A stretch of 64,000 nucleotides of DNA from Podarcis liolepis. Taxonomy: Eukaryota. Where the stretch lies: NCBI GenBank assembly GCA_965112155.1, contig OZ218103.1; one strand, given 5' to 3'. Shown piece by piece: positions 8,978 to 25,671 of this stretch. The first letter of the stretch is position 1, and every line of letters begins with the position of its first letter. The notes beneath the pieces were generated by a model. It did no database searches, was not told the DNA's origin, and saw only the letters and a program-made list of their open reading frames with translations. The translations under genes and the position numbers were made by a program.

Positions 8978-10782
8978 TTAAAGCAAAGCAAACCTGTAAA
9001 AAAAATCTTTTAATTCTCATATGCAGTTACATACCTAGCTGCTTCTTCCACCCCACTTCTTTGCACTATGATTTCCCCAACCCCTCACATTCAAAGTTGT
9101 CAATTAACTATTTTTCACTCCTCAACATGACTTAATGCAGGCGTGAGGAGTCTCTCGTAGATTTCAGTGGGACATATGTCTTAGGAATAGGACTTTCAAG
9201 GCTGAAATCCTAAACAAATTTACTAGTTTGGGGACTGTTTATTGGACTGGGGAGAGGGTTACATTCCCTTGCTGGCAAACTTTGGCATGGTGGTGGTGGG
9301 CATGCCAGTGGTGGGTAGGGCCAGAAGGAAACATGGGCAGAGCAACAAATATGAAGTGTAGCTTTGTACAGTAAGCTAGTTCTTCTGTCTTCCATCCAGG
9401 CAAGCAAGAGGTATTATTGGAGTTCAAAAACACATTCTAGTCATGCAAAAGCATTAAGCTGTCATGGAAAGAGTTGGTGGTGGCCTGAGGAAAGGGCATG
9501 TGTCTGGGAAAGGGGTGTGGTATGGGGAGAGCCCAGGAGGGCAGACAGGCTTAGAGGGTTCCCCACCCTGTTCTAAAGACTGCTGAAATACTTGTCCATG
9601 CTCAAGTAACCACCTCCTTACTCAATTTCCTCCCTGGCACTTCCTATAATTACAGGATACTTCAGAAATAAACTTTTCCTCTTGCTGCTATGATTGTACC
9701 ACTCCTCTATTGAATTCCATGATATGTCTTCCTATAATTATCTAAAATGAACCTTAACATGCCATTCCACTCAAAATCACTCAACACTGATGACATATCC
9801 TAGAAGATCCTTTATCTGTCTTGGGGGAAAACCAGTGTGAGGTTGCCGTGCAGTACATTTCTGTGTTTGGACCTGACTCAAAGGGCTGATACGTTCAAAC
9901 ATTTACACACACACAGTATCATTTGATGATTGCAACATTGTGTGATGTGTATGCAATTGCACCATCTCAGAGTCGGATCGCCCACCATGTCACAGATCGT
10001 TGCAATGCTTTTAAACAGTCAGTTTATTGTGAGCATCACAAGTGTGCTCAAATCAAATACATGTACAAGGATATTTTATTGTACCACAAAATACTGCCTT
10101 GCAATACATTGCAGACAACCAACCCGATCCACAAGGATAGTATGTAATAATTTGATATGCATTATTTATTTACAACATTTAGACAGCGCTTTTCATAATG
10201 ACTTCAAGGCAGTTTACCAAAATGTCAGCATATAAGCTAAACTTAAGTCATACGCAGCATGACTCACCTTTACAGCTCATCCATTAATTGCTTAGGATTT
10301 GCAGACAAATCTTATCTGTGTCCACTCCAGACAAGCTTACTTTAAGAATTAGATAGCAGACATCGAGCTGAAACTTTGCAGGATAACCTGATTATTTTGA
10401 CCAGATATGCACCAAAAGGGGCCAAGGGATGATAAAGCGCACACTGGCCGATCTCTTAGGAACAAAGGGACGCAACGCAAAAATAAAAAAGGGGTTTGGG
10501 AAAAGCAAAGGGGTGCTTGCATGAGAGTTCTATCTGCATCAAGGAACAGGAATCCTGCATGAACTAACGTGCAGCACATCCTTCCGAACGTGAGCGCACA
10601 GCTGCGCGCGCGCGTAGGTTACACGCGCAGTGATTTCCAGCTGCGTCCTTGCTTGCGGCGGGAGGTTGACGCCTCCCCCTCCGTTTCTTTGCAATGCCCG
10701 AGTCCTCTCCTCTTAGGTGGCTGGCAAAGCCAGTTGTTTGTCCTCCTCGCGCGCCGAGAGGGGTTTCCCTAAAGCATCCAAA

Positions 10783-10796
10783 TTGCCCTCTGGCGA
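10783..10796 (-). promoter_or_regulatory. Candidate CTCF motif TCGCCAGAGGGCAA
   Basis: Matches the CTCF core consensus by eye. Confidence 0.4.
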
Positions 10797-11028
10797 CTCC
10801 GCCTCCCAGAGGCTCGCGCGGCTGCTTGCTCCCTACGTGGACGGTGCCTACCTAGCAAGCCTCGCCTGGGCTTCCGCTTGGAAACGGAGAAATAAACGAG
10901 GAGCGGCGGCGGCTCCACCACCAGCCCTCCCTCCGTCCCCGCGGCGCCACTCTACCACGCAGCCGCGCCTGAGGAGGCCTGCCAGGCTTCCCCGCTTGTG
11001 CCGCAGTGCCGTGCGCTGCCTCTGAGGC

Positions 11029-11042
11029 CAGCCAGGGGGCGC
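11029..11042 (+). promoter_or_regulatory. Candidate CTCF motif CAGCCAGGGGGCGC
   Basis: Matches the CTCF core consensus by eye. Confidence 0.45.
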
Positions 11043-11244
11043 TGGTTGCCGGCAGCTGAGGCGGCCTCGGAGCGGGCGAGGGAGCCCAGCCAGCCAGGAG
11101 AGGAGGCAGCCCTCGCCGTCGGGAACAGGCGGGCAAGCGGGAGGCCGGGCAGGCGCCGCGCTGGCCTTCCTTGAGCTCGGGAAGAGGCCTGCCCGGGAGC
11201 CGAGCGAGGGGAGCCTCTCCGACATGCAGGCCCGGCGGCGCTCG

Positions 11245-11268
11245 CTGCTGCTGCTGCCGCCGCCGCCG
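11245..11268 (+). repeat. (CTG)4(CCG)4 trinucleotide tract in exon 1
   Basis: Read directly. Confidence 0.9.
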
Positions 11269-14200
11269 CCTCCCGAGGTGAGTAAGCTGCTGGCCGCCTC
11301 CCGATTTAGCCGGTCTCCGTCGGGCCGCTAAGGCCGGGCATCCTCTCCCAGGCCCCTGTGGGGCGGCGTGAGAAGGGAGCCTCTCTTGGTGGGGGGGCCG
11401 CCCCACGGCTCCTGAGGAGAGGAAGCTGAGGGAACCTTCCCCCAGGGAGGGTGGCCCAAAAGGGGCAAGAGGCGACATAACTGAGGGTCGGAGCGCGTTC
11501 CCCCACAGCACACCTTGGGTCAATTCCGCCGCCCCCCAACTTTAGGGGCGCGAGTTTCCCTCCTTCGTACTAGGGATCATGAAAGCCTCGGGACCTTGAG
11601 AATAAAGAGGCAGACGAGGAGCTTCTCTCCCCGGCTTATCCCTCGCCTTGTTTGTCTGGCGTGTCCTGATGGAGCGGGTTGGGGGGAAGAGAGCCCTGTT
11701 CCCTTCATGGCAACCGGGAAGCCTTCCGCGAGGAGTTCATGGCTTCTCGTATATAGCGCTTCCCACCCCTCTTAATATCTCAGGGGGCGAGCGAGAAGAC
11801 GTGGCAGCCCCCCGCGCCGCCGCCCCAAACAAACAAGCAAGCCTTCCCATACTGCTTCTGCTAATTAGTAGATTCCCCTCCCCCATACATCCAGCCCCCC
11901 CCCCCCCCCGTAGAGCATATGCAACGCTTTTTCACAGTCCTTGCTTGTTTTTGCAGTTGTGCATTCTTGCATCCCCTTTCTTTCCTGTCCTGCTGCTTTA
12001 CAGGCGGCTCCCATTTGTTCGCAGCCCAAGTTTCTCATACTGGATCTGACGGGAATATTGCTGTCAAGGTGTCCTATTTTGTGTCCGTAGTACCTTCCCT
12101 TGTTCTGGCGTCGTTTGTTGCAGCCTGTTCACTATTTAAATAATTTGAAACGTGCCATAACTGCCGAACTAGAGCGCTTACCAGGAGGCAAGGTTACTTT
12201 TAATTGTGTTTGTTGTTGCACTCACTTAAGTGATACTCACCTTGGTGATAAAATTCAGGTGTTTTTTAGTTCTGTGGATGTGGGTAAGTAGGTCCAGATG
12301 ACTGGTTGCAATGGAGGGAATGCATATCTTGTAACATGAATAACTGGTGGGAATTACCTTGATAAGTTTGAATGTTTAGGTATTTTGCATATATGTAAAC
12401 AAATAGTATTTTCATGTACTGAAATAGAAGTATATATGACAACAGAATATATTTATTAATATATTTAAACAAGGTGAAGTTCCACATGTAAAATGTCCAC
12501 AAAACTTGAATGGTCTTGTGGTGTTAGTGCAGATTTTCATATCTGAACCTGCTATTTATTTGTGACTTAAGATGGATGCAAAATTTCAAAGAGCCTGGTA
12601 GAGTGAGTAAGGGAAACATGGAGGTCACACTAAAGGTTATAAGGACAGCAGGTTGATTATTTTTAGCACATAGACATCTAGAAGGATAATATATTTATTA
12701 TGTAAAATATCAAAATCTGAATATAGATGCATGAAAGTGGAGTGCTTATTTGGATTGTACTGAAAACTGTTAGGTTGTCTGAGCGTGGCCCAACATAGAT
12801 AAAACTGCTTTTATTGATCAGCAACACAAAGATGCACATATGTGGTAGCGAATTAATGTTTGTTTCTCTGGTGTGGATTTAATATCACATGCCTTATATC
12901 AGTATAATTTAATGGCCTGGATTTACTAAACTAAAAATGTATTTACACTCAATTAAACTTAGTACAGTAGACAAAAAACTTTAGATTTTGATATCTGGTA
13001 AATGCTGGCACAATTAAGAGGGCTCTTCAGTGGCCCAGAGGTCCTTTAAATGTTGCTCAGCTGCACAGAAGCGTTTCATTAAAAAAGCAGCCCTCACTTG
13101 ACCAAAATTTAAAGGGCCCCATAGAGATCTGATTTTTTAAAAGCAACTTTACTTCACTGATAATTGCAGCGTGTCTCATGGCATCAAATCTAGGCTTTGG
13201 TTTAGTCTCATGCTTGAAATCTTACTGAAATTTATTTAAAGACTGTGAATGTCTATGCTGTTTCTTTTTAAAAATGCAAAATATTTAATCCTTCCATAAT
13301 CCATGAAGCTCTAAATCTAAGCAAATATAATTTAACATATAACTTAGGCAGGCTTTACATTATTTTAATAAATTAATTCTTAATGCATAAATAAAGGATG
13401 AACTATTCAGAGCAGATGCTTTTCAGCATGTATTCTAGCATTTATGTTCTCATTGTTCTTTTACATTTTAAAATGAAAGTGTATATCTAGACCACTGGGC
13501 TCCTTAGATGAAAAATGTAAATGGATGCAGAAATATATGCTGAAGTCAACAGGCAAATAATATGCCTTACTATAGCAGGATTGCTAACAGCTAATAATTT
13601 TTATGCCAACATCTAACTGTTTGGATAAAGTATAACTAACTAACTATTTATTTTGGAATAATATTTCAAAACAGGCTTACAGGTAAATGTTTAGGATTGG
13701 AATAGCAGAAACAGTGATAAAGTATGTATGTATCCCTGTAGTTGTGAATGGTCCTGTGCGAAGGATTATGGAAGAACTTTAATCTACTTAAGCTGCGGTC
13801 ATAACACACACCTACAAGGAAATAAACCTAATTAAGCATAGTGGGATTTACTTTTAGGTAAATATGCATAGAATTGCTTTGTTAGAGCTGGAAGGTTATA
13901 ACTTGACCAATCTGCTTCATTTTAATAAGAGCATAAGAGCCTGCTGGATGTAGTCTAGCACCCTGTCTCATAGTGGTCAACCAGATGCTCTAATGGAAGC
14001 CCATAAGCCATGTTAAAATTCTCAGTTTATACCACCTTTGTATAAGCAAAGTTATGGATATTAGGGCGCTATATTATACTTTTTTCATGGTGCTGGTATT
14101 AAGGCAGTTTTTAACCCACCAGCCCAAGCATGCTTAAGTTAGTAGTTTGTGGTTTAAAGTAAAAATAAACACAGTTTATTTGTTGTAAATATCCTTATCA

Positions 14201-14680
14201 AGTGGCTTGAAGGCAATTTTTACTCACACAGGAGACCAAGTGGCTATTTACAAGCCCTATACAAAGGTGTTGAAACAAGTCTCTAGTAATTTTGACTTCG
14301 TTTTGCTAAATGAAACCTGGGAGTTGATGCAAAGGTTTTTGGAGCATGTGGCCAAGAGTGAAATTGTGGAAACTGTTTGAAATGCTCAGTGAACAGTAGT
14401 TGCCTAAACCTTTTAATTTATGTAAGAAGATGTGAAAGATGGAAGCAAACAATGTTTCTCTGCCGATGGAAGGCATTTGTTATAGAACTAGAGGGCCGGC
14501 AATTCTTCCTCCCTGCCTGCTCCCCAAAATTTGCTGAGGTTTTGGGGAACCCCTTGGAGCAAATTTCTGGGGGCTTGGAGGGAGGAGGGAATTTATTTCC
14601 TCCACCAATGAAGCAACACCAATTGAATTCTATTCAAAGTAATACAGTATTTAATTTTATCCATCATTGTGTGTTTAGAA

Positions 14681-14802
14681 GGACTATGGGTAGCTGTCTT
14701 ATACCAGTCAGACCATTGGTCCACCAAGCTTAGTATTGCTGCTGATGGTGTCTCCAGGTAGGGCTGGAAAAGACTCCTGACTGAAACACTGGAGAGCCAG
14801 TT
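14681..14802. mobile_element. tRNA-derived SINE fragment with internal inversion
   Basis: 14681-14745 matches the family tail on -; 14746-14802 matches the family body on + (compare 36540-36712). Confidence 0.55.
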
Positions 14803-15397
14803 CCTAAAAGGCAAGCTCTAGCAGCTTTGTAGCTTAGGATGCAGGTTTAGCTGCTACTGAAGTAGAGTCATAGGGTGTGATTGATTATGATTACATGTAT
14901 GTTTATTTTAATTCACAGTAAGTCTCTCTTCAAGATGACCAATCACAATAAACATATGAGGAAAATAGTTGAGTCATAAGTACTGTGACCTATTTATTTG
15001 TTTGAAGTATTTATTTCCTGCCCCTTCATTGTAAAAGCAGTGCTCAGGATATGAAAGAAACAAAACAAAATTGCATATTTTTAAACAAGCAAGATTGGGG
15101 ACTATCACAGCAGGGTTGTGGGGTCAGTACAATAAACACATCCGTCCAACAGGCCAAACTTGCCCCAGAACACAAGTGTCTTCACTATGTACTAGACAAT
15201 TATTTGGGTGAAACAAACCTCCTTTGAGTAAAAACTTTCACAGCTTAGATGTGATTCCAAGAAGGTTGTCTTCCACATCTTAACCAGGAACCTCTCTACT
15301 ACTGGTAGAACATAGAGAAGAATCTCTCCTGGAGATGTTAATGAGGAGGACTGCTCTGATTGGAGGAGGCAGTCCTTTAGATTAAATAATAAATCTT

Positions 15398-15746
15398 AAA
15401 GGTAAAGGTACCCCTGCCCGTACGGGCCAGTCTTGCCAGACTCTAGGGTTGTGCGCTCATCTCACTCTATAGGCCGGGAGCCAGCGCTGTCTGCAGACAC
15501 TTCCAGGTCACGTGACCAGCGTGACAAGCTGCATCTGGCGAGCTAGCGCAGCACACGGAACGCCATTTACCTTCCCGCTGGTAAGCGGTCCCTATTTATC
15601 TACTTGCACCCAGAGGTGCTTTCGAACTGCTAGGTTGGCAGGTGCTGGGACCGAAAGACGGGAGCGCACCCCGCCGCGGGGATTCGAACAGCCGACCATG
15701 CAAGTCCTAGGCGCTGAGGTTTTACCCACAGCGCCACCCGCGTCCC
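15398..15746 (-). mobile_element. Sauria SINE, full length, young
   Basis: GGGACGCGGGTGGCGCTGTGGG head and (ACCTTT)n tail on -. Perfect 11-bp TSD TAATAAATCTT at 15387-15397 and 15747-15757. Confidence 0.95.
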
Positions 15747-17878
15747 TAATAAATCTTTAGATAAAGGTAATTAACAGTAGCTGGAATTGTAAAGAAGTAC
15801 GCTTTCCCAACGGAATATATATTGTATGTTTTTGATTAAACAAAAATAGCTTTTAAGAGCAAGACCCTAATTATATACAGACTTTGCAAGTTCCTGTCAA
15901 TGGGACTTGCTTACCAGTACTTCAAAGATTCAGTACTGGTAGGTTAAGCCTATTTTGAATAATGGGAAAATAATGGACTTTTGTAGAAAAAAGAATGCTT
16001 TGCTCTCAAACTCCTTAAAGGCATCTGGCCTCAGAAGGTCCGGCCTTTGTATTCTGTTTGTAGACATCTTTTTAGTAATAGCTGTGGAAATTGAGCTTCA
16101 TTAAATGACCCATTTAATTTTTTTTAAACCAAACCTTCACTGCCTCCATCTAATTAAGAAGTTGAGTGGAAGGTTTGTTTTAGTTCAGTCTGTCCGCTCC
16201 TACGGTGAGATTGTACTGCTACTTTACAAATTATTTTTTTAAGAAACAGAGATTAGTTTATGTGCTGTGGAAAACAAAGCATGTATCCAGAAATGTAATA
16301 AAAGGCAGTGTGTGTTTTTGTCTTGGTGCAAATGTTAAGAAAGCTGGTCCATATGTCAGCTTCTTAGTGAGTGTACCTGAGGCAAGTACTCATGCTGCAA
16401 ATTTTGCATAGTGTGTATGTGGGGGGAGGATAATTCCTGTCTGGTTCACCTCATACAGTTATCTGTCACATTTGTTTCAGTTGGGAGGGACAGCTGGCCT
16501 AGAGGTGCTGTTTTTGCTGCAACTGGTACTTATAAACTAAAATAGGAGGTCCTATATATTTTTTGTGTTTGCATACTGTTGTGACTTCTTGGATAAGCAT
16601 TGTTTACTTTTTGTGGTCCATTACTTTCAATTGCTTTAGTGCAGATCTAGGCCAGTACAAGAGAAGAAGGGTTAAATGCATGTCTCAAGCACAATAGCTT
16701 TTGTTTTGTCACTGGAGTGGCAGATGGGAAACCAGAATCTCTTACATTCCCGCATACATTGACTATGGGGGAGAGGCATTTACCATCAGCTGATGATCTT
16801 AAAATTAGACTTCATTTGAGCCTGTGCTCCTTGAGTGTTCTGTAATAAAAAGCATGTTTATTGTATCAATGCACTCTTAATATTTTATACAGATGATTAC
16901 ATTTTGAGCTAATGTATGCTGTAGAATCATCTTCTAAATTGACTGAAATTCATATAAATATATGAAGTAAACCTATGAATTGGTTGTATTTTGCTTTATT
17001 GCACAGTATTCAAATACATCAATTTTCTAGATATGTTAAATGTCTCTTCTGGTATATAGCCTTTTTTGTTAGAACATCTGTAACTGTCAGAAACCTCTGT
17101 GTTGATCCCCCCCGGAATATAGCAAACATAGAAATCCATAATGTTCCCTGTAAAAGGCAGATCAAAGTGCTGTACAAATCTCCTAATAGCTGTGCCTAGC
17201 TATGAATGACACTTCCTCGTTATAAACACTTTCATATTTTCTGATTTCACTTTGCTGTGTCAAAATTTTGCTTTGAACTCACTCCTAGCTCTGTTCACCT
17301 AGCTGGCTGTACACTGTTTGGTATACAATTACTATGTAGGATCAGTAGGATGAAAGCTTGTTTAGATGTTTAGTTGTCTTATGTTTGCAGTACTGTTCGC
17401 ACCAACATTCAAAAATTCATAAGACTGAAGTTAATTATTCTGCATCTCCCAGTCCTTACATCACTCCCTGTCCTCCTATTCATTCTGCTATTAAATTGAG
17501 AGTGAAGATGGCATAAAGATTCTTTTGTGTTGTTTATCTCTTCACCTTGTTGTCATGCTGCCATGCCCTTTTGCTGGATATTCTTTATCCTTGGTGTACG
17601 TTGGCTCATGGGACTATTGGGTCATGAATAATCTTCATGAGAAGAAACGTTTTATGTATATGCCTGCTGCACATTGAAACGCCAAAATAAGCCATTCCCC
17701 AGATAGCCTTTTAGTAAAATGTCTACTCACCACAAAATATGCACAGTACTCAACTTATCACCACTTTGGCATAACATCCATCACTCATTTTCACTATATA
17801 ATTGCACTTTGCTCTACTCATGCTTAACTCTGATCTAATTTCTCTCCACCTCTCTACGTTTGGTCTCCGTAATTATTG

Positions 17879-18007
17879 ATCATAGAATTGTAGAGTTGGA
17901 AGGGATCACGAGGGTCATCTAGTCCAACCCCCTGCAATGCAGGAATCTTTTGCCCAACATGGGACTCAAACCCATGACCCTGAGAGTTTCACACTCTACT
18001 TACTGAG
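17879..18007 (-). mobile_element. tRNA-Lys-headed, CR1-tailed SINE
   Basis: Reverse complement closely matches 50697-50843. Confidence 0.8.
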
Positions 18008-18326
18008 GAAGGAAGAACAATGTTGAAAGTCTATATTGATGATGGGACCAGGAATAGGAAAAAGCAACACAAAATATTTTGACCAGGGACTGCATCATAG
18101 CATAGGAAAGGTGGAGAGTAGGGCTAGGTGATAAATCAGTATATCATCCCAAATTGTTTTTGAATCCACATTGTGATAATTGTTTTGACCTGGCAATATA
18201 TCACGAGGGAAATTTGGACAAAAGGATTGGAAACTGATGACTTCCCCATGGGATGGCTCGGCTGAACAAAGACTTTTCTCTGCAGGAAGGGGAGAATCAC
18301 TACTGCTGGGATTAAAATATGTAGAG

Positions 18327-18514
18327 CAGGGGTAGTCAACCCTTTTTTATACCTACTACCCACTAATGTATCTTTCTTGATGGTAAACTTTCCTTACCGC
18401 CCACCAGTGCTCGATGGAAGGAGGATTCAGCTTGTGCTGTAGAACCCCCTACCGCCCACCTAGAATCCTGAAACGCCCACTAGTGGGCAGTAGGGACCAG
18501 GTTGACAACCCCTG
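18327..18514. mobile_element. hAT MITE
   Basis: TIRs CAGGGGTAGTCAACC / GGTTGACAACCCCTG; 8-bp TSD ATGTAGAG / ATATAGAG (7/8 match). Confidence 0.85.
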
Positions 18515-19761
18515 ATATAGAGGGAAGAGGACTTCCCTCTCCCAAATCTCACACACACAAGTTTGGAGAGGGGCAGGCCAAACAGCGCACCACCATCTCC
18601 CTGCTTTGCTCGCCTCCCTCCCCAGCGCCACAGTCCCTTCCCCTTACACTGAGGGAGGCGGCAGACGTGCATCTTTGCCTCAGAGCTACTCCCCCACCAC
18701 CACCCCTGCCGCTCCCGTCCCTGCTACCACCTCTTCTCCCATTCCCTCAGTTCTGTGGTCAGCTTTCCCACAATGTGGGAAAATCCGTGAAGCTAGTCAA
18801 TGCTTCTCAGTTCCTGTTACTCGTCTTCTGCATGTGCATGGGTGTGCATGCATGCATGTGTTTGTCTGTCTCTCTGTGCTAAGAATCCCTGTGCTAAGAT
18901 AGGGGTGGGGGTTCCCCCTCCAGGGTCTGTATCTTCTGCTTTTCCTCTCTATTCCACACCATCCAGAAATTGACACGAGGTTTGGCTGCTTCTTCCTCCC
19001 CACCTCTCTCTGTCTGGGTAGCAGTTGCCAGGACATAACCCCTTTGCTTCTACATGGTTCCATCCTTATTTCAGGCATTGTCATATATCTGTATATCACA
19101 GTATTTAGCTGGTATATCACGATGTTGAAAACCAGATATCGTCCAGCCCTAGGGAAAGAACAGTGTGCAGGAATGAAGTGATTAGGGCCCATTCCCATTG
19201 GCATAATATTGAGGATTATTGTAGTCAGTGAATACACACAGTGGTTCTGTGGTGTTGAAAATGTATTTTTATGTAGTGTGGTGGGCACATACCCATAGCC
19301 TTGTGGTACATCTTCAGGAGAAGAAAAGACTAAGGAGTAAACCCTACACCTATCTGGAATGGAGTCTGTAAGATGATTGAATGATGTTTTGTGCACCACC
19401 TTCTGGCAACTCCTGCAGCCAAGCTGGTACCAAACATATTGCTCTGCTTTCCTTAGCAAGGCTGAGAGGAGGTCTTGTTGTCTGGGCAGCCTAGGACCTG
19501 CCCAGACTTTTGCCCTGGAGAAGTCACTTGGGTCTGCCATTTTTAAAATGTCTGCAGGCATCAAAGTATGCCAGTCAAATTGATAGTCCTGTTCTGTATG
19601 ATTATTTTCCATTACACATTACACATTTGTATTTATTTGGTTTTGGTATTTAATTTCTCATGTCACTCTAGTAATTTGAGTCAGAGAGGAGGGAAGGTAC
19701 ACTAACCAGAGGGAAAGTCACCAGGTGGCTTAGTTGAATGCTTCTGTGGAAAGATGTACAC

Positions 19762-19942
19762 CAGGGGTGTCCAAGAGACTGCGATCTACTCCCACTATAA
19801 ATAAACTGGCAGTGATCTACCCATTGAATTTGATCAGAGCTGTTGAGCTTTTTTGGGGGGAGAGATCAGAGTAGTTGAGCTTTTTTTAGGGAGAGAGGTC
19901 AGATCAACTGGTAGATCGCGATCGACCAGTTGGACAGCCCTG
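19762..19942. mobile_element. hAT MITE
   Basis: TIRs CAGGGGTGTCCAA / TTGGACAGCCCTG; perfect 8-bp TSD ATGTACAC; internal ~33-bp tandem duplication. Confidence 0.88.
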
Positions 19943-20806
19943 ATGTACACAATCTAGGAACAAGGATACATTGAAGAGCTCAAGTTGCAGCCTTCATGTT
20001 TTGCCATCTTCTGCATACTTGTAGCAAAAACTTATTCCTGGTTATTTCCTTAAGACTATTTCCTCCATACTTTGGTGTTAGTCTCCAGCCAATCTGGTAA
20101 AAAGTTAATCCTATCACAGAAAACTTGGTTTATTATAATAAGAATGTCATGTTTCCTAATGAAAGTGAGAACCACTATAGATTAGGTGCTATAAGGTGCC
20201 CAAATCTTTTATTACCTGAGATGAATAAGTACAAATTTCTATTGTAGGCATAAGCAAGTGTTACCAGTTAAGCTAATGAGAAAATGGCAAGTCTTTTCAA
20301 GTTTGTATCTAGCAATTTATTGTGATGCCTTTGTAGTCTTAGGGCTTGGTTACTCTTCTGAAGTTGCTTTTGACTGTGTTTCGGGAAGCACATTTACACA
20401 AGGATGCATGGCCTCATAAAGAGACTAGATGCAGTTCAGGACACTGATAATAAACTAGTTTAAGCCCAATTTACCTCCTGCCTCTTCATGAGATCAGATG
20501 TGTGCTGTCTACACGTTATTTGGGAAAGGATAGTTGATAGTTCATCTGTGTAACTGCTGTGGAGATTTGGGAGCATGTGTTGGAGACAGGGAATAATTGG
20601 TATCTTTTTGGTGGGGGGCTTTCTTTGGTGGCCACTTAAATGTAGTGGAGTGAAGGTTATGTTATCAAATTGTTTTTAATAGGTTTCAGAGGGGGAAAAT
20701 CTTACCCTAACTTGGATTTCAAGATGAGGCAGGCTGAAAATAGCTAAACTACATACAACTAATAGCAGCTTTAGGAATTCTAATGTGGTGTTTGTTTCAT
20801 TTTTAG

Positions 20807-20911
20807 GATCAAGCAGAATATACAGATTCAATTCAACTAGCTGATTGGGCAGTGTATATCATGGATAGACATTGGTTCATTCGTTTCTTTATGCATGTGT
20901 AGGAGAAAAAG
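20807..20911 (+). other. ZFYVE9: ZFYVE9 putative exon 2 (5' leader, 105 nt)
   Basis: U-rich acceptor tttgtttcatttttag| and consensus donor AAG|GTAAGA; lies between the CpG-island exon and the start-codon exon. Confidence 0.75.
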
Positions 20912-22512
20912 GTAAGAGGATGGCAAATGACAGTATACATCTGGAATATTTGAATTAAGAGAGCACCTTTAAATTTGCATCCTTGGTATGCTTCTTATAT
21001 TGCAGTCCTAAACAGATCAGAAATTTATTTATTTATTGAGTTTCTGGCCTGCTGTTCCTTCTAGGGCAACAAACAACCAAGCAGGAAAACATTTTTTTCA
21101 CCCCAGAGCCTTCCACAATAAGAGTTATGAATCAGTCTAATTTCTAGTAATGTTTCTAGGGTGTTTTGTTTGAAGCAAGGACAAGGAAGCTTTGGCCCTC
21201 GATATATTGTTACTTTTATCATTGCTGGTCACAATAGTGTTCTGCAATAGAATCATGCATTTTTAAATTTAAAGTTTAGAGCTTCCTGTTTGTAAAAAAA
21301 ATATTATGGGTGGATTGTGAACTGAAGTATATTTAAGGCCAAGTTTGCCTGCCTTTTCTTTAGACTCTGTTGTGGGGTTTTCCTTGAAACCTAGCTGTGG
21401 AATCAGGCACTGTCACTAAGTTCTTGATTTAATGTATTTTGGTTGCCTTCTCCAGCACAAATGTTTGCAGGATAGATTTGGGAGAAAGTTTTAGAAAGGT
21501 GCACATAACAAGCTAGCTTTTTTGTTTCACTTGTGAGGCTACATATATTGAATGACTGGGTTGTCTGGTTCATTGTCTGCATGCAAGGCCTACTATTTTG
21601 TATACCAGCACAGACTTCTTCAATGTTTATTTAGATGGTGGCATTAAAAATTGCAGACTTTGCTTCTGCTTAAAGAATTGGTTGATCCCTTGACTGTGTG
21701 CAGGAACAGGTCAGTTGTGTGTACTACACTTTATCGTTACAGAGTTAATTTTAAAATTCTGGGTTCAGATTTCCTTCCCTATATAATAAACACTGTTGTA
21801 AGATATACAGATCTCTCTTTTAATTTCTATAAGGTCCTTAATCTTGAATAAGTTATATCAGTCACATTGCATTTAAGACTTTAGTGTGAAATAGTATTAC
21901 TTCCTTGGCTAATATGTTGGCTTGTTTTGAGTTGTTGTTCCAGTCCACCAGGATTATGTGGTTGGCAAAGTTTAGGCTAAATGCTATATCCTGTCATGCA
22001 TTAATCTAGGTTAGAAACTGTAGAAGCTGCAGATTCAAGAATGCAAAGCACAGTAGACAAAATATTATTGAATTAACAGGAGTCATCTTTTAAAATGTCC
22101 ATTATATAATTTATTTGACTGAAATGGTCTAGAGCCCATACTACAGTAAAGCTCACTAGATAGCTTTGGACAAGTCAGTGATTTTCAGTATAGCTTTGTT
22201 TCCTGTGGGGTTGTGAAATGTTCTATGGAAAAGAAAGGAATATATATTTGTATAAAGTGAAGATTTCTGAACTGTCACATCTACTCCTCTTTGCAATTAT
22301 TGTTTCACCTCATCCATTCAAAACTTTTTTATGTAGAGATGGTTTATAAAGTTACTTGGCCATTGGGGAGTTACCAAGATGATATATTTATTAGGTAATA
22401 TCTCCCAATGTGTCCTTGTAGTTCAAATCTGTTATACGGATGAGAAATGACTGGTAGCATCCTTGGGTCAAACATAGTTATTGAGTTGTGTGTGTGGTCA
22501 GAAGACTGATTA

Positions 22513-22682
22513 CCATATTTTGCCGTGTATAAGATGCCCCCATGTATAAGACTCCCCCTATTTTGGGGGACTCCAAATTAAGAAAACATCCCTCAGCATT
22601 ACCCATGTATAAGACGAGCCCCAATTTTAAACCTATTTTTTTGGTAAAAAATCCCCTAGTCTTACACACAGAAAAAACATGG
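22513..22682. mobile_element. Tc1/mariner-type (Tc2-like) MITE
   Basis: Imperfect TIRs CCATATTTTGCCGTGTATAAGA / TCTTACACACAGAAAAAACATGG, with TA on both sides. Confidence 0.7.
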
Positions 22683-22774
22683 TAATTTTTCCTGATTTGA
22701 TACTTCAGTCACTACTAATTGAAATCCTGCTGATTTCTGTCTGAGTTAGTAACTGGATGCAACCCTGAGCCTGA

Positions 22775-23450
22775 GTGCCCAGGTTTCTGCAGTGGCCAGG
22801 AGTGCATCTGCATAGCTAAAGCCAGTGTGCCAGCTGTGCCCTTTCCTAGAGATGTCTGATCTGCTCACAGTGACACACACCTTAGTTACATCCCATTTGA
22901 ATTACTGTAACATGCTTTACATGGGTCTGCCTTTGAAAAGTGCTAGAAAACTTTTAAAGGGCCCAAGGAGCTCCACTGGCTACTGGTCTGTATCCGGTCA
23001 CAATTTAAAGTGCTGGTTGTGACCTATAAAACCTTATACTGCTTAGGCCTAGGCTATCTGAAGGCCCAGGGTATTTTCCCATACAAACCTATCTGGGCTC
23101 TTGAGATGTTCGAGGTGGCCCTTCTCTCATTCCTGCCATGCTCACAGGCACCTTTTGTGAGAACGCAGGAGAGGCTGCTCCCAGACTTTGGAACTCCCTT
23201 CCTGGTGAACCTAGACTGAACTATGTCCTTGTGGTCCTTCCTCTGGCAGGTGAAGATTGATTGTTTTATTCCAGCAGGCCTTTGGGAGCTGATTGCTTTT
23301 AAGGAAAGGGTTTTTAATAGTGTTGTGCTGTTTTTACCATCTGTATTTTAATAGATTTATTTTTTACACTGTTTTAATTCCATTGTTGTTTAATTACTTT
23401 TCAGCTATTATTGATTATATCTTTTTAGCTTTCTGTGTTTTAGCTGTGCT
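22775..23450 (+). mobile_element. L2/CR1-group LINE 3' fragment
   Basis: Degenerate ORF2 motif LVTSHLNYCNMLYMGLPLK (ORF 22825..23022), followed by a T-rich 3' UTR. Confidence 0.75.
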
Positions 23451-23934
23451 TGTACAATCTGGACAAATCTAGTTTTTATTCTTTTTCCCAGAACCAGGGC
23501 TCAAGGCAGCATACAAAAATGCAGAAGGTGGGGTCTAGATTAGGACTGATGCCATCATGTGATGGCACTAGGGCTCGCTGAAGATCCAGTAGATCCTGAG
23601 CCAGCTCAGTGCCCTTCCCCCTCTCCCACTAGAGCACACACACACCTGGTCTTGTGGGTAGAATGGGGGAGCTCTGCTTTGGTAGAAGGAGTAGATATGG
23701 AGGCTGGCAGTGTTAGGCAGTAAATTAGTTTCAGTAGTTGATATATATTAATTTTGTTTCAAAGTTATTAATAATTGCCATTGTGAAGCTCACTGAATGT
23801 GTTCATTTAGGAAGTCCTGCAATGTTTCATATTTACCATGGGATCTTAATTTTAGTGGATATGTAAAAGAATAGATTGGTACATTTTCTATCATCATGCC
23901 AGTCATCCTGCTGTCCTTTAACCAAATTTATATA

Positions 23935-24175
23935 CAGTGGTACCTCGGTTTATGAACTTAATCCATTCTGGAAGTTCGTTCTTAAACCGAAACTGTTCTT
24001 AAACCAACGCGCGCTTTCCCTAATGAGGCCTCACACTGCCGTTGCCCTTCCACTGTTCCGATTCCATTCTTAGACAGAGGTAAAGTTTGCAAACTGGGAC
24101 ACTATTTCTGGTTTTGCGGAGTTTGTAAACTGAATCGTTCTTAAACCGGACTGTTCTTAAACCGAGGTACCACTG
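23935..24175. mobile_element. Tigger/pogo-like MITE
   Basis: 23-bp TIR CAGTGGTACCTCGGTTTA(T/A)GAAC with one mismatch; TA on the left, TC on the right. Confidence 0.85.
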
Positions 24176-25069
24176 TCCTACTTAACTCAAACAAGAACTC
24201 TCTAAGTTGCTTACAAAAGACTTTTATTTCCAAAAGTTAGCTAAGAGTGTGATTCCAAGTGAGTTGTAGGTTGGGGTGTGAAGTGACATATTGTATTCTA
24301 TTTTTAATCGCATGTTGGCTAGCACTGGCAAGGTTGGAGGTGTACGGACAGACTTGTCTTCTTCTTGGCTCCCAGGGAGCCTTTTCTATTTTAAAAGAAT
24401 CACCCCATTGGTTCTAATGGAGAGAGAAGTTAAATATACTAGTTCCAGAGTGGCATGGATGCGGACCTGATCCTGTCTCGGCCAGTCATACTCTGCCCTT
24501 GGAGTGTCTTGTTTCAGTGCCTAACATTGATTACTGCTAGTGAAAATAGAACTGTGCCTATGGAGCTTTCCCACATAACGTCCCCCCTCCCCAATGGAGA
24601 GATCTTCACTGCCATCAGAGGGGCTCCTCCATGCATCCCTAACCCCTTCCATCCATTAGATCTGTGAGTTAGGACTCCCCTTCCCCTTCCCGTCTTTAGA
24701 AAGAAAAGGAACAATATGATTTTATTAGGGTTTTTTAAAAATAATAATAATACTTGCAGCAAATAACTGATAAAACCAAAATAAATCCTTAAGTCCCTTC
24801 TTAGTCTAGAAGGCTTCTAATTTATTTGTATATCTGGCTGATATTGAGGAGGCATTAGGAATTAGAGGATCAATACAGTTTCATCATCACAGTTTTGTAA
24901 TACTGGGAAATGCTTTTGATTTTATAGGAAATAGTCAAACTAGCTTAAATTTTAAGCTTGGTAATAATCTCTAAATCTTGTGATGGGACATTGGAATATT
25001 GCTAGAAGTTCATAACTGGCTGTCTGCTTGACAGGTTCAGACAAGGAGCTGGGTGGCATTTCCTGACAA

Positions 25070-25139
25070 ATGGAGAACTATTTCCAGGCAGAGGCTTTTA
25101 ACCTTGATAAGGTTTTAGATGAATTTGAACAAAATGAAG
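25070..25139 (+). CDS. ZFYVE9: ZFYVE9 exon 3, first coding exon (MENYFQAEAFNLDKVLDEFEQNE); whole exon 25035-25139
   Basis: Recognisable SARA N-terminus; gacag acceptor at 25034; G|gtgagt donor. Confidence 0.95.
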
Positions 25140-25671
25140 GTGAGTAACTTTTGTTAGGGCTGGAGATGCAAACTAATATCTGGATCTGTGACTCTGGTTG
25201 TATTTCTTTGTATTTCCTGTTCCATTGTAACTAACATCTGTTATGCATTTGCTGGGAATAAAAGTCTGAAAGGGATATTGAGAAATCTACAATTTTTTTC
25301 TAGGTAGAAACAGTTAAAATAATTGTCTTAAAAATTTCAGTGATTACATGAATGATATCCCTGTATTAATTGGGTGTCAAACATTGGCACAATTGCATAG
25401 ATATAAAATTCACAGGTAAGAATTGCTTGCAGCTAGAGCTAGTACAGATAAGATTAGCTGTCTGTGCATAAGAAGTAATCAGCTTCCATCCGCTCTTTTG
25501 CAACCCAGAATGCACATACTCCCCGATCAATCCCCCATTTTACACTAAGTTCAGTGTTACATTTCATTGTGCTCCTAGTTAGCACAAGTCTTAACTAGCT
25601 TTTACAACACTGATTGTTTGCTTTCTATACCTATGACTCTGCTAACTGATGGCTAAAATTTGCACATAATA

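Follow-up and report, generated by a model that had tools for sequence, protein, structure and literature searches.

The 64,000-nt window analyzed here (Podarcis liolepis contig OZ218103.1, GCA_965112155.1) is a lacertid ZFYVE9 locus; the SARA N-terminus encoded in its exon 3 matches named ZFYVE9 proteins and chain E of PDB 5mjy. Exon 1 lies within a CpG island (10600..11400, no strand assigned), in which GC content is 0.61–0.77 and the observed/expected CpG ratio 0.70–0.97 (200-nt bins, 10600–11399). Raw RNA read depth in the bin 10804–11307 exceeds that in neighboring bins. All of the following features are on the plus strand. As the first-pass annotation described, an ATG at 11224 (G at −3, C at +4) opens 18 codons (11224..11277) that run in phase 0 to a GTGAGT donor; codons 4–6 (11233–11241) specify Arg-Arg-Arg and precede a Leu/Pro repeat. 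A 9,529-nt GT..AG intron (11278..20806) interrupts the frame, which resumes in the 105-nt exon 2 (20807–20911; acceptor TTTTTAG, donor GTAAGA) for 31 further codons and a TAG at 20900–20902, giving an upstream ORF (uORF) of 49 codons. This second part (20807..20902) fills 96 of the 105 nt of exon 2, is single copy in the genome and contains in-frame ATGs at 20861 and 20891. The former, in a strong context (A at −3, G at +4), begins a nested 13-codon uORF (20861..20902) with the same stop.

A 9-nt tail (20903..20911; 10 nt in human by alignment) separates this stop from the donor, and exon 3 (25035..25139) contributes a 35-nt leader, the SARA ATG at 25070 (C at −3, G at +4) and the first 70 coding nucleotides. 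The uORF stop is 44 nt from the SARA ATG in the spliced mRNA, and the two frames differ. In addition, a 27-codon out-of-frame ORF begins in exon 2 (20895..20911) in a weak context and overlaps the SARA ATG once spliced. The leader has the layout of a translated AUG uORF: in the spliced mRNA, an AUG, an open frame and a stop all precede the main start. Openness alone is weak evidence: of 5000 shuffles, 11.8% leave exon 2 free of stops in this phase, and 92.8% do so for exon 1; the uORF rises above chance because a matching human ORF exists.

The predicted joint between exons 2 and 3 (20911/25035, GT..AG) was recovered in four of four runs, comprising three contig sets of presumed RNA status and one raw RNA run with five reads on the joint; a search for sequencing runs listed no matching run recorded as RNA. 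RNA support for the exon 1–2 joint (11277/20807) in lizard is indirect. This joint is absent from the 15 of 90 joints listed, from an alignment in which 11233–11280 was masked as a repeat. In contig X3-21, exon 2 is preceded by 26 letters that do not match the adjoining intron, and the alignments of X3-21 and contig X14-11 begin at 20805, as expected if the upstream exon, like exon 1, ended in AG. Use of a different first exon upstream of exon 2 is the alternative; in human, the exon 1–2 joint is annotated.

A human counterpart, which the first-pass annotation had mentioned, is indeed catalogued as translated. This GENCODE Ribo-seq ORF, c1riboseqorf100, encodes 41 aa from 30 + 96 nt in the same two exons, with the same splice phase and a Val-stop near the exon 2 donor. 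Like the lizard ORF, it has its ATG in exon 1, a phase-0 splice, an inner ATG that opens the last 13 codons and a terminal Val, and its stop lies 46 nt from the SARA ATG, compared with 44 nt in lizard. The lizard ORF is eight codons longer by virtue of the Leu/Pro repeat in exon 1, where the two lengths (54 and 30 nt) differ by whole codons. The C-terminal third is aromatic in lizard but non-aromatic in human, and translation has been shown for the human ORF, whereas the lizard ORF is known here from its sequence. The human inner ORF (ENST00000371591_44_83; 13 aa) carries 540 P-sites, 78% of them in frame, and is assigned to the structure class ‘vertebrata’; P-sites are found on the rat inner ORF too. 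No counterpart of the overlapping, primate-young c1riboseqorf99 is evident in lizard, where the stretch from 10697 to 11223 contains no ATG. The uORF belongs to an ordinary class, and its human form has already been catalogued.

Traces of the uORF also appear in other gene models. Its start is found in 1 of 137 ZFYVE9-like proteins checked, an owl model (P0037) that begins with a matching stretch containing the same three arginines, probably as a misprediction, and its stop can be placed in gecko and beaver models by back-translation. The mouse and rat inner ORFs encode 9 and 8 aa, respectively, as opposed to 13, which suggests that they end differently in these rodents. Judged from these few species, with no matched control, start, stop and frame appear to be kept across distant species. 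At the ZFYVE16-like paralogue (G000:C12), a 30-kb region encompassing and preceding the first coding exon contained no match to exon 2 (best blastn E 1.8, best tblastn E 0.51), and the uORF may or may not predate the ZFYVE9/ZFYVE16-like duplication.

Between lizard and human, the layout has been kept, but most of the peptide has not. Our codon-level comparison covers one lizard–human pair, aligned by eye and counted by hand. Exon 2 aligns without gaps, with 12 of 31 residues identical (39%); ten of these fall within the first 19 codons and two within the last 12. Differences are spread uniformly over codon positions in the uORF (12/10/15, p 0.60), in contrast to 23 SARA codons, which differ at 0/1/9 sites (Fisher p 0.010 versus the uORF). 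Nucleotide identity in the ORF (58/96, 60%) does not exceed that of the spacer (31/46 columns, 67%). There are no indels in the 96 nt, compared with one 1-nt indel each in the tail of exon 2 and the leader of exon 3; by length share, the chance of both falling outside the ORF is about 0.1, which is weak evidence, and the tail consists of a run of purines prone to slippage. This single pair gives little sign of the amino-acid constraint, especially C-terminal, that would be expected of a conserved-peptide uORF (CPuORF).

These comparisons bear directly on the suggestion, made at first pass, that the ORF encodes a microprotein, which would be stable and act in trans. In favor of this proposal, the human peptide falls in the BLASTP class ‘conserved’ across non-primate mammals, a class that takes in ~4–5% of uORFs, lncORFs and dORFs, one mass-spectrometry (MS) study has reported the human ORF, its PhyloCSF score in primates is +9.58, and exon 2 retains the gap-free identity noted above. 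Against it, PhyloCSF across mammals is −443.81, and the lizard–human pair shows no third-position bias. The aromatic-rich C-terminal half, originally read as the mark of a peptide, does not hold up either: the human peptide, which contains no Phe, Trp or Tyr, has none of the seven aromatics encoded by lizard exon 2, and the richness itself is borderline, being reached by 163 of 3335 stop-free shuffles. The loss of C-terminal identity and the apparently altered rodent ends of the inner ORF argue in the same direction, and the inner peptide was undetected by shotgun or HLA MS. Among 1.84 billion representatives, the exon-2 peptide had three matches: a lacertid-like Logan gene call that covers this very exon and reads through the stop, and two unrelated repeat proteins. 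The 56-aa Logan call used as a query returned itself alone, and a degenerate exon-2 pattern had no matches in metagenome contigs; a search of the ESM Atlas yielded no usable hit, which is uninformative. The ORF therefore lacks the positive coding signature and conserved protein family of the MIEF1-MP, ASDURF and SLC35A4 type, and we consider a trans-acting microprotein improbable.

Mammals and reptiles split ~320 million years ago, and a layout of two nested starts, one stop and a phase-0 split has persisted since then while most of the peptide changed. This combination suggests that selection acts on SARA dose through translation. The other function offered in the first-pass annotation, a translational rheostat, gains support from the catalogued human ORF of the same layout. 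On balance, we favor the view that the lizard ORF is the orthologue of a translated human uORF and probably serves as a cis-acting brake on SARA synthesis, likely through its position and frame and not through its peptide.

A brake of this kind could operate as follows. In the leader, two ATGs of the same frame open ORFs of 49 and 13 codons that end at a common stop, and in human both ORFs carry ribosomes. Ribosomes that initiate at the first ATG, whose context is adequate, would translate 49 codons and rarely restart. Those that leak past would mostly be caught by the strong second ATG, translate only 13 codons and could then restart at SARA, as restart drops with uORF length in the reporters described in the available text of PMC10187673. 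How ribosomes divide between the two starts would then determine SARA output, and termination at the uORF may in addition make the mRNA susceptible to nonsense-mediated decay. Selection could maintain starts, phase and stop because loss of the stop, or many single-base deletions, would create an ORF that overlaps the SARA start and blocks restart. In silico, stop loss yields an 80-codon ORF overlapping that start, and 1-base deletions yield an overlap at 61 of 144 positions when read from the first ATG and at 36 of 36 from the second. Single-base insertions do so at 0 of 144 positions, and overlap avoidance therefore explains only part of the frame conservation. High ORF-structure constraint combined with low PhyloCSF is, according to the portion of PMC13275300 available, common in human uORFs (45.8% vs 2.5%). 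In literature listings and abstract openings, we found no study of the function of the ZFYVE9 uORF, including any in which start-codon mutation raises main-ORF output.

Alternatively, the uORF could be a passenger in a leader conserved at the RNA level, for splicing or protein binding, with its frame persisting by chance. The spacer is as conserved as the ORF and openness in lizard is not rare, as this model would predict. However, the two ATGs, the splice phase, the whole-codon difference in exon 1 and the stop position are all common to lizard and human, ribosome occupancy in human is heavy, and a change inside the ORF affects a reporter. We regard the passenger model as improbable, to about the same degree as a microprotein. 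That change is a de novo leader variant from an autism proband, chr1:52142384 G>A, for which the available text reports a luciferase log fold change of +1.08 (p 0.029, FDR 0.047, n = 4) and, with the full-length leader, an effect in the same direction with RNA unchanged (the latter by elimination from that text). By our reading, it would fall on nucleotide 11 of the human uORF, turning CGG into CAG (Arg4Gln), and be synonymous in the overlapping c1riboseqorf99; a term search of the main text of the variant paper found no link to the uORF. A roughly twofold rise from a codon-4 change that spares both ATGs and the stop is unexpected for a purely positional brake, unless it acts via RNA.

The variant also counts in favor of another model, in which the ribosome is slowed or stalled by an arginine-rich nascent start (Arg-Arg-Arg-x-Leu-Leu), with stronger repression as the result, and the C-terminal portion undergoes drift. 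Arginines occupy codons 4–6 in lizard, human and the owl model; the six codons of this motif differ between lizard and human at three synonymous sites and one replacement site (by eye); the first half of exon 2 is the better-kept half; and the variant, read as Arg4Gln, about doubles reporter output. In two of five other uORFs, Arg-to-Ala changes relieved repression, although amino-acid and nucleotide effects were indistinguishable to the authors (PMC10032668, seen in part). On the other side, Arg codons come cheaply in a CpG island, known stalling uORFs depend mostly on their C-termini as described in the accessible part of PMC7530721, which is the least conserved portion here, and the evidence consists of one variant assayed in one cell line. 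This base change also introduces a CAG, a potential splice acceptor in the reporter, and alters base pairing: the same change in the lizard fold weakens it from −29.1 to −24.8 kcal/mol, although that fold is itself unremarkable (z −0.5). The variant effect could equally well stem from RNA structure or from a cryptic splice site. With a z of −0.5, the hairpin that follows the first ATG is no stronger than shuffles and was dropped as a candidate special feature. A role for the nascent arginines is therefore unlikely on present evidence, if less so than a microprotein or a passenger, and similarly doubtful is the fuller proposal that an amniote-wide uORF uses its N-terminal Arg cluster to repress SARA translation peptide-dependently, with the proband variant a missense change that doubles SARA dose. 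Were the Arg-cluster reading true, this ‘5′ UTR’ variant would be a missense change in a hidden peptide, doubling the dose of a TGF-beta/endosomal scaffold. More generally, the lizard–human comparison would place any function of the peptide in its first half.

Among known systems, as far as the available texts describe them, the CPuORFs of PTP4A1, MKKS, MIEF1, SLC6A8 and TMEM184C, among others (PMC7530721), resemble the ZFYVE9 uORF in being long, AUG-initiated, conserved in vertebrates and placed before a regulatory gene. By contrast, their C-termini are conserved and their repression is frameshift-sensitive, whereas the C-terminus is the least conserved part of the ZFYVE9 uORF. ZFYVE9 is mentioned neither in the main text of that study nor in that of a uORF screen (bioRxiv 10.1101/2025.07.07.663426). 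The Arg-rich uORF peptides of ASB15 and PECAM1 (PMC10032668, in the part available) share an Arg cluster and lose repression when Arg is changed, but these uORFs encode 3–15 aa, whereas the ZFYVE9 case involves one Arg near the start of a 41–49-aa ORF and one natural variant. Structurally constrained regulatory uORFs, with high ORBL and low PhyloCSF, resemble the ZFYVE9 uORF in keeping start, stop and frame under little amino-acid constraint; relative to the available description of that group (PMC13275300), the conservation of the ZFYVE9 uORF extends to sauropsids.

The predicted leader of the lizard ZFYVE9 (SARA) transcript contains a 49-codon upstream open reading frame (uORF; 11224..20902) whose architecture agrees with the sequence at every coordinate claimed by the first-pass annotation. 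From an ATG at 11224, 18 codons run to a phase-0 donor, and exon 2 (20807-20911) supplies 31 codons and a TAG, with two further inner ATGs (20861, 20891). The SARA ATG, out of frame with the uORF, lies 44 nt beyond the stop. On the plus strand, start context is adequate at 11224 (G at -3, C at +4), strong at 20861 (A at -3, G at +4) and weak at both 20891 and 20895; the SARA ATG at 25070 has C at -3. A 27-codon ORF from 20895 runs over the SARA start, and hypothetical exon 2 skipping in silico would give the first ATG an overlapping ORF of 45 codons. Another ATG in the CpG island that holds exon 1, at 10694, opens a 53-codon ORF that stops well upstream of 11224 and matters only if transcription begins that far upstream.

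ZFYVE9/SARA is encoded by a large exon from 30035 on, whose top protein match, 99% identical, is named Podarcis muralis ZFYVE9, and the N-terminus read from 25070 is that of 135 of 137 ZFYVE9-like proteins compared. Exon 2 is single copy genome-wide. The first coding exon of a paralogue, presumably ZFYVE16/endofin, lies elsewhere (G000:C12:34831008-34831073, minus strand; 64% identity over 22 aa) and likewise has 70 coding nt followed by a GT donor; the 30 kb searched near it contained no match to the uORF exon.

Four runs from lizards closely related to Podarcis liolepis, one of raw RNA reads and three contig sets presumed to be RNA, were aligned across 10300-25400. The exon 2-3 joint is present in all four; the 15 joints listed, out of 90, do not include one between exons 1 and 2, and 11233-11280 was masked as repeat in that alignment. 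Two contigs match exon 2 starting at 20805, one with 26 extra upstream letters that differ from the adjacent intron, which would fit with, without proving, exon 1 upstream (exon 1 ends in AG). No 5′-end pile-up was seen in these runs across this interval. The first kilobase or so of intron 1 (11278-12315) has low-depth contig cover from one run (X3), plus a second (X1) in bin 11308-11811, for which DNA, unspliced transcripts and an extended or different first exon are all candidate sources; another first exon is therefore possible. Intron stretches with very deep reads and many variants (15340-15843, 17860-20379 and 22396-24411) are interspersed repeats, not exons.

The lizard uORF is the orthologue of a catalogued, translated human uORF, c1riboseqorf100, listed in the PMC10032668 supplement as a 41-aa ORF split between 30 nt of exon 1 and 96 nt of exon 2. 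One MS study is listed for it, and its PhyloCSF score is +9.58 among primates but -443.81 across mammals; its class, ‘conserved’, denotes BLASTP similarity across non-primate mammals (PMC10032668). The lizard’s eight additional codons are accounted for by a CTG/CCG triplet run (11245-11274); length differs by whole codons. For the nested 13-aa human ORF, the counterpart of that from 20861, the same supplement gives 540 P-sites, of which 78% are in frame, and classes the conservation of its structure as ‘vertebrata’. Its mouse and rat forms are 9 and 8 aa long, and neither shotgun nor HLA MS detected the peptide. An owl gene model (P0037) begins with residues that match what exon 1 contributes to the uORF and then joins SARA at residue 2-3, which we read as a probable misprediction exposing a bird uATG. 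Start ATGs of gecko (P0015) and beaver (P0134) models overlap the uORF stop; back-translation is compatible with a retained stop and post-stop tails of 8 and 11 nt, respectively (lizard 9, human 10). The beaver model extends SARA in frame by 18 N-terminal aa from this ATG (the 20895-25070 equivalent). The gecko model skips exon 3, beginning SARA at the ATG overlapping the uORF end; because ATG-to-donor distance is 17 nt in the lizard (20895-20911) versus an inferred 16 in gecko, a P0015-type isoform would be out of frame in Podarcis liolepis. Start, stop and frame appear to be kept across the few species compared.

An open frame taken alone is weak evidence, because 11.8% of exon 2 shuffles stay open, and a passenger ORF is a conceivable but very unlikely reading. 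In a by-eye alignment of lizard exon 2 with the published human leader, the uORF part has no gaps in 96 nt and 58 of 96 identical bases, whereas the non-coding spacer, as conserved (31 of 46 columns), has two 1-nt indels. Differences at codon positions 1/2/3 number 12/10/15 in the uORF (uniform, p 0.60) but 0/1/9 over 23 SARA codons (Fisher p 0.010 for the contrast). Of the 31 residues that exon 2 encodes, lizard and human share 12: 10 lie among the first 19 and 2 among the last 12. The aromatic C-terminal half, previously taken as peptide-like, does not bear that interpretation: none of seven lizard aromatics is kept in human, whose peptide has none, so they are lineage-specific. The amino-acid constraint that marks conserved-peptide uORFs and microprotein genes alike is not found here, and a trans-acting microprotein, one of the functions first proposed, is very unlikely. 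We favor the reading that selection preserved the frame rather than the peptide, although the comparison covers a single species pair, gap-free identity of 39% is not negligible, and the indel contrast is weak by itself.

Could repression nevertheless depend on the peptide? A de novo variant from an autism proband, chr1:52142384 G>A, raised luciferase output in a reporter (log fold change 1.08, FDR 0.047, n = 4; PMC12859497); by elimination from the text of that paper, the full-length leader with the variant appears to have changed in the same direction with RNA unchanged. Our mapping places the variant at base 11 of c1riboseqorf100, predicting Arg4Gln with the number of uAUGs unaltered. Lizard codon 4 is the identical CGG (11233-11235), and the owl model, like the lizard and human uORFs, has Arg at codons 4-6; the lizard and human codons differ there synonymously. 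This shared cluster argues for peptide dependence, but the variant also creates a CAG that might act as a splice acceptor in the reporter, it may act by altering base pairing past the ATG (in the lizard it weakens an otherwise unremarkable fold by 4.3 kcal/mol), and a CpG island makes Arg codons easy to come by. Searched by term, the main text of PMC12859497 names ZFYVE9 twice and lacks ‘amino acid’ and ‘uORF peptide’. We regard peptide-dependent repression as unlikely, albeit less so than a microprotein or passenger.

The uORF is real and old, and likely regulatory. The layout of nested starts is evident in the lizard, and translation is published for human; on balance, we lean toward a nested two-start brake on SARA translation, whose repression, restart and decay steps are inferred. 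Because restart falls as uORF length rises (PMC10187673), a ribosome translating 49 codons would likely be lost to SARA, whereas one that initiates at the strong second ATG would translate just 13 codons and could then restart at SARA; decay can also follow termination at uORFs (PMC10187673). In silico, stop loss creates an 80-codon overlap; single-base deletions make the ORF overlap the SARA start at 61 of 144 positions, and single-base insertions do so at none (0/144). In other genes, frameshifts that produce overlaps of this kind lower main-ORF output (bioRxiv 10.1101/2025.07.07.663426). Relevant supplementary tables aside, the literature searched yielded no functional study of the ZFYVE9 uORF. 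Structural constraint without a coding signature, as favored here, is reported as common among human uORFs (PMC13275300).
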